Counted from the stretch's first letter, positions 4,135-56,279 are shown. The stretch is DNA of 64,000 nt from Escherichia coli O157:H7 (GCF_013167455.1 NZ_CP038328.1); one strand, 5' to 3'. Made by a program: numbers and translations. The notes: generated by a model not told the origin, from the letters alone.

Positions 4135-4638
4135 TCAATGCAGCTGATGCGACACGACATTCAGAACATGTTGGTCGGTCTGCACTGGGCACATACCCGC
4201 AAGTTTCGCACTGCGCACTTCATCAAGAATGGTTTGCAGCAACAGGCCATCATGCTGCTGTTCTTTTTCCAGATCGCGCAGGAAATTGACGGTTGAATCA
4301 TCATTCAGTTCTTTCGCTTCATCGGCTAACTGTGCCAACGTACTAGAACGTTGCTCGTATTCTTCCATCGTTTTTTGGAACAGTTCTTCCAGAGAGTTCA
4401 GTTTTTCACCGGGAACATCAATGGCTTTAACGATGGGGGTAGCGCCGACACTCTTCATAAAGTTAAACATGCGCATCATTTGGGTCACATTACTCTGTGC
4501 CTGGGCGCGAAGGAAAGTGGCGGTGCCGTTCAGACTCTGTTCAGAACACCAGTTACTCAGGTGAAGGTAGAGATTGGATGCGTAAAACTCGCGGTTCATT
4601 TGAGAGTTGAGTTTGAGAAGCATTCCAGCGGTTGCCAT
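4135..4638 (-). CDS. ftnB: Ferritin-like protein FtnB
   Basis: 167-aa ORF, ferritin-like fold, paralogous to ftnA. Confidence 0.9.
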
Positions 4639-5149
4639 ACCTAATATCCTTATATCCAGAAGTGGAGAGGTGCAAGATAAATCAAAACACCATAATTACT
4701 GTTTGCAGAATAATTCCTTTCTGCCGGTCCGAAATGTGATCGTGGAGTCAATTCTGACGATGATCTGAAATAAGAATAACGTCTGAACGGGTATAAGAAA
4801 ATGCTTAAATCATCAAGTTTATATATTTTTACATTTCATTGATGAAATCAATGTAACTGCAATGAATTTTAATGATAGTGCTTTTTGTATCTTGTTGATA
4901 TTAATCAATGAATTTGAATTCATGATGAAGTGATTATTTTATAAAACGTTTTTTCATTTTTGCGAGATGGCTCTCATTATACGTGTTCTGTTAATTAATG
5001 AGCACAGTGATAATTAATGACGAAATGAATGACGTGCATTTTCCACATCTTTGAGTTGCGGTTATTACACCATTTCAAAAACTCAACGCCAGGTAATGCG
5101 GCCTATTGACTGGTGAAAAAGAAGACATCCCGCATGGGTACCAAAGACA

Positions 5150-5434
5150 ACAAGGATTTCCAGGCTAATCTTATGGATTAATCTGCTGTGCATTCAACAA
5201 TTTGTCTGACAAATTGGCTTTTCCTTATGTCTTTTCCCGCTAAATTTATGCACGTTCTCACTGTAATTCTGCGATGTGATATTGCTCTCCTATGGAGAAT
5301 TAATTTCTCGCTAAAACTATGTCAACACAGTCACTTATCTTTTAGTTAAAAGGTAATGCTTTGTTTTCCGATTAATTTAACGAATGTCATTCGTTTTTGC
5401 CCTGCACAAAACGACACTAAAGCTGGAGAGAACC
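5150..5434 (+). promoter_or_regulatory. araFGH promoter region with candidate AraC half-site
   Basis: tatggattaatctgctg (5172..5188) matches about 13 of 17 positions of the reverse-complemented AraC I1 half-site; exact promoter elements not resolved. Confidence 0.4.
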
Positions 5435-6424
5435 ATGCACAAATTTACTAAAGCCCTGGCAGCCATTGGTCTGGCAGCCGTTATGTCACAATCCGCTATG
5501 GCGGAGAACCTGAAGCTCGGTTTCCTGGTGAAGCAACCGGAAGAGCCGTGGTTCCAGACCGAATGGAAGTTTGCCGATAAAGCCGGGAAGGATTTAGGGT
5601 TTGAGGTTATTAAGATTGCCGTGCCGGATGGCGAAAAAACATTGAACGCGATCGATAGCCTGGCCGCCAGTGGCGCAAAAGGTTTCGTTATTTGTACTCC
5701 GGACCCGAAACTCGGCTCTGCCATCGTGGCGAAAGCGCGTGGCTACGATATGAAAGTCATTGCCGTGGATGACCAGTTTGTTAACGCCAAAGGTAAGCCA
5801 ATGGATACCGTTCCTCTGGTGATGATGGCGGCGACCAAAATTGGCGAACGTCAGGGCCAGGAACTGTATAAAGAGATGCAGAAACGTGGCTGGGATGTCA
5901 AAGAAAGCGCGGTGATGGCGATTACCTCCAACGAACTGGATACGGCTCGTCGCCGTACTACGGGTTCTATGGATGCGCTGAAAGCTGCAGGATTCCCGGA
6001 AAAACAAATTTATCAGGTACCTACCAAATCTAACGACATCCCCGGGGCATTTGACGCTGCCAACTCAATGCTGGTTCAACATCCGGAAGTTAAACATTGG
6101 CTGATCGTCGGTATGAACGACAGCACCGTGCTGGGCGGCGTACGCGCGACGGAAGGTCAGGGCTTTAAAGCGGCCGATATCATCGGTATCGGTATTAACG
6201 GTGTGGATGCGGTGAGCGAACTGTCTAAGGCACAGGCAACCGGCTTCTACGGTTCCCTGTTGCCAAGCCCGGACGTACATGGTTATAAGTCCAGCGAAAT
6301 GCTTTACAACTGGGTAGCAAAAGGTGTTGAACCGACCAAATTCACCGAAGTTACCGACGTGGTGCTGATCACGCGTGACAACTTTAAAGAAGAACTGGAG
6401 AAAAAAGGTTTAGGCGGTAAGTAA
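5435..6424 (+). CDS. araF: L-arabinose ABC transporter periplasmic binding protein
   Basis: 329-aa product from MHKFTKALAAIGLAAVMSQSAMA (signal peptide); GGAGAG Shine-Dalgarno; the listed ORF has a 17-codon upstream extension. Confidence 0.95.
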   Translation: MHKFTKALAAIGLAAVMSQSAMAENLKLGFLVKQPEEPWFQTEWKFADKAGKDLGFEVIKIAVPDGEKTLNAIDSLAASGAKGFVICTPDPKLGSAIVAKARGYDMKVIAVDDQFVNAKGKPMDTVPLVMMAATKIGERQGQELYKEMQKRGWDVKESAVMAITSNELDTARRRTTGSMDALKAAGFPEKQIYQVPTKSNDIPGAFDAANSMLVQHPEVKHWLIVGMNDSTVLGGVRATEGQGFKAADIIGIGINGVDAVSELSKAQATGFYGSLLPSPDVHGYKSSEMLYNWVAKGVEPTKFTEVTDVVLITRDNFKEELEKKGLGGK

Positions 6425-11810: not shown

Positions 11811-12589
11811 AACCTGTTCCTTATTCTGTGAACTTCAGGTGACATTAAAGCTTTACTCCTAATGGAGAAACGACGCAATCCCAACTCAGTCAAACAGGTA
11901 AATATTAGTCCGATTATTAGTAAAGACAATTAATCAATCACTCTCGGTGATCATATGATTTCAACTGTAATTATAAGAAAATAATGTACTGATTCCCCGC
12001 ATTAAACAAGTGGTTAATATATGCAAAACATTTTATTAACATTAAGTTGATTGTTGCCTTTCTTTGTATTTAATTAGTTTGTTGTGCGGTAAGTGTCTGT
12101 TTAAAAATAGCTTATCTGGTATTGCATGAAAGTGATTATTTATAGCAGATGATTATTTACGGTGAGTTATTTTAACTGTGCGCAACATCCCATTTCGATT
12201 ATTCCTGTTTCATTTTTGCTTGCTAGCGTAGCGAAAAACTTTTTAACAGATTGAAATACACCCAAAACAAAAGTATGACTTATACATTTATGTTAAGTAA
12301 TTGAGTGTTTTGTGTGATCTGCATCACACATTATTGAAAATCGCAGCCCCCCTCCGTTGTATGTGCGTGTAGTGACGAGTACAGTTGCGTCGATTTAGGA
12401 AAAATCTTAGATAAGTGTAAAGACCCCCTTCTATTTGTAAGGACTTATTAAACCAAAAAGGTGGCTCTGCTTATTGCAGCTTATCGCAACTATTCTAATG
12501 CTAATTATTTTTTACCGGGGCTTCCCGGCGACATCACGGGGTGCGGTGAAACCGCATAAAAATAAAGTTGGTTATTCTGGGTGGGAATA
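11811..12589 (+). promoter_or_regulatory. flhDC master-operon regulatory region and long 5' UTR
   Basis: 780-bp AT-rich intergenic region upstream of flhD; contains the CRP site at 12313..12328; no IS element present. Confidence 0.8.
12313..12328 (+). promoter_or_regulatory. CRP site of the flhDC promoter
   Basis: tgtgatctgcatcaca, perfect TGTGA-N6-TCACA; its centre lies about 270 bp upstream of the flhD ATG, consistent with the known -71.5 site and ~198-nt leader. Confidence 0.75.
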
Positions 12590-56085: not shown

Positions 56086-56279
56086 GATCTTGCACAGATT
56101 GTAGAACAATTTTTACACTTTCAGGCCTCGTGCGGATTCACCCACGAGGCTTTTTTTATTACACTGACTGAAACGTTTTTGCCCTATGAGCTCCGGTTAC
56201 AGGCGTTTCACTCATAAATCCTCTGAATGAAACGCGTTGTGAATCATCCTGCTCTGACAACTCAATTTCAGGAGCCTTT

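Follow-up and report, generated by a model that had tools for sequence, protein, structure and literature searches.

We report here that the intergenic region between the divergent genes ftnB and araF of Escherichia coli O157:H7 (GCF_013167455.1, NZ_CP038328.1) carries a conserved palindrome which is predicted to be an operator of YieP, a regulator of the GntR/FadR family, within the control region of the high-affinity arabinose uptake genes araFGH. The region was studied within a stretch of 64,000 nucleotides (the window, to which all positions refer) and extends from 4639 to 5434 (796 bp), between ftnB (4135-4638, minus strand) and araF (5435-6424, plus strand). Taken as a whole, the gap is probably a composite in which two divergent control regions are joined by a lineage-specific AT-rich spacer, with the palindrome acting as a YieP operator and a 23-codon open reading frame (ORF) in the spacer being present by chance. 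It is ordinary but densely packed regulatory DNA which provides one modestly new and testable lead.

An earlier reading of the sequence alone (hereafter, the original prediction) had drawn attention to the length of this gap, to the palindrome and to the small ORF, and had suggested that the region could hold a small RNA (sRNA), a small protein or a silencing region bound by nucleoid proteins. In the analysis that followed, conservation across species was measured at the araF locus of 80 Enterobacteriaceae species, and conservation within the species was measured in an alignment of eight divergent E. coli genomes. Short megablast queries were uninformative for population conservation because flanking single-nucleotide polymorphisms break the 28-nucleotide seed.

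Conservation of the palindrome

The palindrome, CAATTTGTC-T-GACAAATTG, was found exactly at 5198-5216, with its core, ATTTGTCTGACAAAT, at 5200-5214 and its centre at 5207, and it is indeed unlike the consensus sequences against which it had been compared in the original prediction (CRP, LexA, Fur, PurR and FNR). Its centre is midway between the centres of two AraC dimer sites, at a distance of 37.5 bp from each, and about 118 bp upstream of the probable araF transcription start described below. In 62 of the 80 species, a box that matches ATTTGT-N3-ACAAAT at 10 or more of 12 positions stands 233-236 bp before the araF ATG; in these species the palindrome keeps a fixed position, and the background for boxes of this quality is 21 in 552 kb, or approximately one per 26 kb.

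The conservation of the arms (0.84, compared with 0.53-0.59 in the flanks) is comparable to that of the neighbouring AraC and CRP sites (0.77-0.88), while the spacers beside the palindrome and its central triplet vary freely (0.53-0.65). The triplet is found as CTG, CCG, CGG, CAG, AGG, CAT or ATG while the arms hold, and within E. coli the outermost pair and the central base are the only positions of the palindrome that vary, next to hypervariable flanks. Because the arms are conserved while the centre and the flanks vary, this pattern is the signature of a site that is read by a symmetric dimer.

Perfect palindromes with arms of at least 9 bp and a loop of at most 3 bp appeared in 2.6% of the dinucleotide shuffles of the gap (P ~0.026), so that the palindrome is only mildly unusual when taken alone and is strongly supported by its conservation. 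The shuffle frequency and the AT-rich composition of the surrounding DNA would both be compatible with a palindrome that has no protein partner, arising by chance or serving as a structural feature such as a bendable spacer between the AraC sites. This explanation is nevertheless very improbable, given that about 25 genera share the conserved arms but differ freely in the central 3 bp and on either side of the palindrome, as is expected of a dimer-binding site and not of a compositional feature.

Proposed assignment of the palindrome to YieP

The site reads TTGT-CTG-ACAA and fits the generic GntR/FadR operator pattern NyGT-N3-ACNy with its free centre. A text search of the literature identified the same 11-mer as the footprinted operator of LhgR and AlkR, two GntR/FCD regulators of Pseudomonas whose footprinted sequences (TTGTCTGACAA and ATTGTCAGACAAT) coincide with the palindrome core, and the GntR/FadR family was therefore considered. 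As the organisms, the regulators and their ligands differ from those at araF, this likeness shows the class of protein but not its identity.

Published chromatin immunoprecipitation (ChIP)-exo data on 33 sites give the YieP motif as atTTGTaTGAcaAAT, which ATTTGTCTGACAAAT matches at 14 of 15 positions, among them every high-information position (those in capital letters). The same motif recurs at independent YieP targets. At ykgE, which was identified as a YieP target by ChIP-exo and is derepressed when yieP is mutated, the site ATTTGTCATACAAAT matches ATTTGT-N3-ACAAAT at 12 of 12 positions; in the promoter of rydC, which is genetically repressed by YieP, the site ATTTGTATGATAAAT matches at 11 of 12 and lies between the -10 and -35 regions. 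Weaker copies were found upstream of the YieP targets arcB and dauA (10/12 each) and yohJ (9/12). The YieP operators of ykgEFG, yohJK and rydC hence share the 15-bp dyad with the araF site, and in 200 kb of K-12 sequence the only sites with at least 11 of 12 matches were those of araF, ykgE and rydC. Variants of the araF site in other Escherichia have a 15-bp core that is either identical to the rydC version or at most one base from the ykgE version.

Another dimeric regulator, either a GntR/FadR paralogue such as DgoR or PdhR or a LysR-type protein (T-N11-A), could in principle read the palindrome, which fits the generic GntR pattern and matches the PdhR box at 15 of 17 positions and the DgoR core at 9 of 11. 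The DgoR operators upstream of dgoR (TGTAGTACA and TGTACTACA) share the TTGT/ACAA elements, and a LysR protein has been reported on the same 11-mer in Pseudomonas. However, the boxes of PdhR, FadR and UxuR are built on GGT/ACC and not on TGT/ACA, DgoR sites keep a GTA.TAC that the palindrome lacks, and no similar palindrome was found in the control regions of lgoR, rspR, rspA and mcbR. A regulator other than YieP is considered unlikely, since the YieP motif gives a much closer fit and is shared by independent YieP targets. We therefore regard the palindrome as a putative conserved YieP operator of the araFGH control region.

At the known strong targets of YieP, the box lies on the core promoter or immediately downstream of it, and the genes are simply repressed. 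The predicted araF operator differs in being about 118 bp upstream of the probable start and between two activator sites. Because it does not overlap the core promoter, simple occlusion is not applicable. Given its distance upstream, bound YieP would more likely interfere with, or remodel, the way in which both AraC dimers, and CRP, assemble on the araFGH promoter. High-affinity arabinose uptake would in this way receive a second metabolic input from YieP, most probably of a repressive kind, since YieP represses its best-characterised targets. The regulator has been linked to 3-hydroxypropionate tolerance, to lactate-utilisation genes and to the sRNA RydC. The wider proposal, that YieP feeds directly into the arabinose regulon by gating AraC/CRP assembly in most Enterobacteriaceae and so controls high-affinity uptake of arabinose and galactose, is offered tentatively, as a possibility that we hold to be somewhat less than even.

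Several points weigh against a role of YieP at araF. The link between YieP and araFGH is a prediction from sequence, and the main text of the papers on YieP ChIP-exo, their full site lists aside, mentions neither araF nor ftnB; the araF site may already figure in the published lists. The gene araF is outside the YieP i-modulon, but the underlying data come from growth on glucose, in which araFGH is off. The H-NS cover seen in K-12 could exclude YieP from the site, as it apparently does FNR. The araF box is clear of the core promoter, unlike the rydC site, and its placement at -118 depends on a probable araF start in a region for which a second promoter has been reported. Finally, the box is degenerate in 18 of the 80 species, for example in Cedecea, Siccibacter, Franconibacter, Pantoea, some Citrobacter and Mangrovibacter.

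Two further sequences of this type were recorded. A one-mismatch relative of the dyad, GATTGTAGAACAATT, is present at 56097-56111 in the zwf-edd spacer of the window; it was set aside as a further YieP box, the number of such matches in the window being equal to the chance expectation. In three Pseudescherichia-like loci (L051, L062 and L063) a second YieP-like box, ATTCATCTTACAAAT, was found about 1005 bp before the araF ATG and about 130 bp upstream of a gene for a DJ-1-family protein. It hints that YieP may also control this DJ-1 glyoxalase gene in the Pseudescherichia-like lineage; hchA, which encodes another glyoxalase III, is reported to be up-regulated in a yieP mutant.

The araFGH control region

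The last 285 bp of the gap are conserved across genera, and the araFGH control region occupies 5150-5434. AraC half-sites follow the consensus TAGC-N7-TCCATA. Two AraC dimer sites were identified on the minus strand, each a direct repeat of half-sites 21 bp apart, as is characteristic of AraC-activated promoters. The distal site (5151-5188) consists of TAGCCTGGAAATCCTTG and CAGCAGATTAATCCATA, which match the consensus at 15 and 16 of 17 positions, with a mean conservation of 0.77; the half-site at 5172-5188 that the original prediction had called AraC-like is real, being the one with 16 matches. The proximal site (5226-5263) consists of TAGCGGGAAAAGACATA and CAGTGAGAACGTGCATA (15/17 and 14/17), with a mean conservation of 0.85.

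A probable CRP site at 5272-5293, with TGTGA-N6-TCTCC at 5276-5291 and its centre at 5283.5, would overlap the araFGH -35 region; it matches the CRP consensus at 14 of 22 positions with a perfect left half, and its conservation is 0.88. At the araFGH promoter the CRP site has been reported to overlap the -35 region with AraC upstream, and all of the known araFGH elements are located downstream of a primer which maps to position 5062 of the window (PMC2893085). The conserved TGTGA-N6-TCTCC adjoins the AraC site in the order given in that study, the register being our own assignment. A second CRP candidate, TGTCA-N6-TCACT at 5320-5335, was dropped because it lacks both conservation and a good adjoining AraC site.

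With the CRP centre assumed to be at -41.5, the araFGH start would be at about 5325, next to the putative -10 region GCTAAAACT (5310-5325 for the -10 region and start together, plus strand), and the araF leader would be about 110 nucleotides long. The conserved block ends at about 5319. The leader (5326-5434, plus strand) contains the Shine-Dalgarno sequence GGAGAG at 5423-5428 and a conserved element, GGTAATGCTTTGTTTT, at 5352-5367, which is 91% conserved across the 80 species, compared with 0.56-0.57 in its flanks. Using sigma-S polymerase in vitro, Maciag et al. reported a further araF promoter, of which GGTAATGCTTTGTTTT could be the -10 region; alternatively, GGTAATGCTTTGTTTT could act at the RNA level.

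A further motif of the leader, at 5400-5406, reads CCCTGCA here and CCCTACA in K-12 and most genera, its conserved part, CCCTRC, being the complement of the six bases with which Spot 42 begins. Pairing of Spot 42 with the araF leader was not retained, since the duplex energy is within one standard deviation of that of shuffled sequences, and it is at best a weak lead. Scans of the gap with the Fur, ArcA, NsrR, IscR and IHF consensus sequences gave weak matches only.

The arrangement resembles that of araBAD/araC in its direct-repeat AraC half-sites 21 bp apart, in having more than one AraC dimer site and in its dependence on CRP. It differs from araBAD/araC in that the order is reversed, with CRP next to polymerase and AraC upstream, in that the half-sites face away from the gene, and in that a third, unrelated dyad, the putative YieP operator, lies between the two AraC sites.

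The ftnB control region and H-NS

The other end of the gap carries the ftnB control region on the minus strand. Pourciau et al. reported that the ftnB leader is 127 nucleotides long, that CsrA protects three of its four GGA motifs and that one of these CsrA-related motifs overlaps the ftnB Shine-Dalgarno sequence (PMC6686035); four GGA motifs were likewise counted in the minus-strand sequence of the leader (4639-4765). From the reported length of the untranslated leader, transcription of ftnB would start at about 4765. In published ChIP-seq data, the sole sigma-70 peak in the gap (U00096.2 1984820) corresponds to position 4767, and the core promoter (4766-4801) contains a -10-like TATTCT (4773-4778), at a fitting distance from this start, and a -35-like TTTTCT (4796-4801), both hexamers being read from the sequence. 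The promoter region has a homologue in Citrobacter.

About 60 bp upstream of the start, a CpxR-like box, GTAAA-N5-ATAAA (4818-4832, minus strand), matches GTAAA-N5-GTAAA at 14 of 15 positions. It would fit the reported activation of ftnB by CpxR (PMC9600279). Within the leader, published Term-seq data place two 3' ends on the ftnB strand, at 4707 (+59, K-12 1986856) and 4664 (+102, K-12 1986899), of which the upstream one was scored as not Rho-dependent. Because both fall inside the leader, short leader RNAs with CsrA-binding GGA motifs may build up.

The original prediction overlooked a perfect FNR consensus, TTGATATTAATCAA, at 4895-4908, which falls within the small ORF some 136 bp upstream of the ftnB start. 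It is the only perfect match to TTGAT-N4-ATCAA in the 64-kb window. Table S6 of Myers 2013 includes the site among the high-scoring FNR predictions and records an overlap with H-NS, and no FNR ChIP peak is listed for it, with or without H-NS. The consensus is thus not seen to be occupied at an activating position, as it would be in an FNR-activated promoter. The box is also polymorphic. Six of the eight E. coli sequences have ATCGA or ATCGG in its right half, and the perfect form is confined to those of K-12 and O157. In Salmonella, H-NS is reported to bind and repress ftnB, and FNR to activate it; the work on Salmonella cites Partridge et al. 2007 for FNR binding far upstream of ftnB in E. 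coli, and binding in vitro is reported at second hand.

The idea of a silencing region bound by nucleoid proteins is supported. Published K-12 H-NS ChIP-chip peaks (U00096.2 1983947-1985830 and 1982242-1989198) span the whole gap under both aerobic and anaerobic conditions, and araF is among the genes whose oxygen response is visible only in an hns stpA mutant (Myers et al.). Low G+C content and this occupancy together mark the gap as an H-NS-bound AT-rich region. The ftnB side, from 4639 to about 4910, would accordingly be made up of a CsrA-repressed leader, a sigma-70 promoter, a CpxR-like box and an H-NS-covered FNR box that is silent in vivo.

The upstream region of ftnA is alike, with long, AT-rich, H-NS-bound DNA in front of a ferritin-family gene. 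Silencing of the ftnA promoter by H-NS was reportedly found by Nandal and colleagues, in 2010, to be relieved by Fur. The ftnB gene differs in this respect, as the best Fur-box match in the gap (12/19) is unconvincing and the activators reported for it are CpxR and FNR, with post-transcriptional control by CsrA in addition.

Small ORF and sRNA candidates

The 23-codon ATG..TGA ORF exists on the plus strand at 4862-4933, as the original prediction stated, and reads MNFNDSAFCILLILINEFEFMMK; its interpretation as a small membrane protein was not supported, and five other Escherichia species have lost either its ATG or its reading frame. Its product would be hydrophobic, and the ORF is intact, with 23-24 codons, in all eight E. 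coli strains sampled. Against these two points, no purine-rich Shine-Dalgarno sequence was found within 15 nucleotides before the ATG at 4862, and its length is not above chance because five ATG ORFs of at least 23 codons were observed in the gap, compared with 6.0 +/- 1.9 in dinucleotide shuffles. The ATG is ATA in three other Escherichia species, and in E. albertii and one close Escherichia species a stop codon follows after 10-11 codons. Of the changes within the eight E. coli genomes, four are non-synonymous and two synonymous, and the stop codon has also shifted; the ORF is situated in the fastest-evolving segment of the gap, which has no homologue outside Escherichia. It consequently shows neither a ribosome-binding site nor a conserved frame under purifying selection.

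The ORF is also not annotated in NC_000913.3, a record that includes validated small proteins such as AzuC, and the published data contain no sigma-70 peak or RNA 3' end near it on its strand. In strain HZ13 it is interrupted by an IS5-family insertion sequence (IS) element. That this ORF encodes a real small hydrophobic protein is thus improbable in the extreme; it is judged to be non-genic, a chance ORF which coincides with a site of regulatory type, the FNR box.

An unannotated sRNA in the middle of the gap fares hardly better. Approximately 300 bp there have no assigned function and two weak terminator-like hairpins are present in the gap, yet the Rfam search returned sub-threshold noise only and a promoter scan found no promoter-like site from which an sRNA could be transcribed. 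In the gap, sigma-70 gives a single peak, at the ftnB promoter, and Term-seq 3' ends are confined to the ftnB leader, none being recorded between K-12 positions 1986100 and 1986799. The segment in question is, moreover, the fast-evolving one without a homologue outside Escherichia. The gap hence presents no promoter of its own, no defined 3' end and no conserved sequence or structure for an sRNA, and such a gene is highly improbable.

The AT-rich spacer and a lost gene

The observation that most spacers in the window are shorter than 250 bp was borne out with a crude gene model, in which 50 of 61 gaps are below this length (median 55 bp) and the ftnB-araF gap is among the two longest; the other long spacer, at 11811-12580 (770 bp), also contains no long ORF. 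As had been noted, no ORF of 60 or more amino acids lies wholly inside the ftnB-araF gap, the largest being of 53 amino acids. No feature is annotated between ftnB and araF either by PGAP or in the curated K-12 record NC_000913.3, and beyond ftnB are yecJ and azuC. Of 5426 complete E. coli genomes, 5412 contain the gap. The sequence studied here differs from that of K-12 MG1655 by five bases, with no insertions or deletions (K-12 position = 1991563 minus window position). The G+C content falls to 23-27% over 4750-5000, in the ftnB-proximal half.

The two ends of the gap have different homologies. Positions 4643-4842 align with ftnB-proximal DNA of Citrobacter and positions 5149-5434 with araF-proximal DNA of many genera, while the segment between them (4843-5148; G+C 23-34%) has no detectable homologue in Citrobacter, Enterobacter or Klebsiella, local alignments with the corresponding Citrobacter and Enterobacter regions giving z <=3. 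This Escherichia-specific, H-NS-covered spacer evolves fast, with 9.9% variable columns among the eight E. coli genomes compared with 1.9% in the ftnB-proximal part. Two insertions were noted in or near it. Strain HZ13 (L090 1470-2683) has the IS5-family element ISKpn26 inserted at about position 4904, and strain Ecol_542 (L097 2756-3666) has IS1 at about 4841 and has lost araFGH and most of otsBA.

In most Enterobacteriaceae genera of the 80-species sample, including Citrobacter, Enterobacter, Klebsiella, Leclercia, Kosakonia, Buttiauxella and Phytobacter, a gene of 185 amino acids is located between ftnB and araF, on the araF strand and ending about 318 bp before the araF ATG. It encodes a DJ-1-family glyoxalase III (NCBIfam) and is exemplified by positions 2126-2683 of locus L012; it is also found in L010, L018 and L081, and in most of L007-L081. 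The gene is missing in all six Escherichia species, and a tblastn search for a remnant in E. coli with three orthologues gave a best E value of 0.7, so that no trace of it is detectable there at the protein level. Decay is evident elsewhere. One Citrobacter has an internal deletion (L011) and another a 3' remnant alone (L020), one Leclercia has a frameshift (L013), and in several Enterobacter (L016, L017, L021, L023 and L026) the gene has been replaced. The simplest reading of this pattern is repeated loss. Escherichia would have kept both control regions, and the roughly 300 bp of AT-rich DNA that now link them are of untraceable origin; the gap is unusually long because the DJ-1 gene is gone and AT-rich, H-NS-bound DNA is in its place.

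Conclusions

The negative results remove a candidate small protein and a candidate sRNA from the ftnB-araF region, and this long intergenic sequence is explained as a scar left by gene loss and now covered by H-NS. The regulators usually given for araFGH are AraC and CRP alone. If the predicted YieP operator is borne out, high-affinity arabinose uptake would respond to a previously unrecognised metabolic signal in one of the best-studied regulons, and YieP would gain a well-understood promoter at which its mechanism may be studied.

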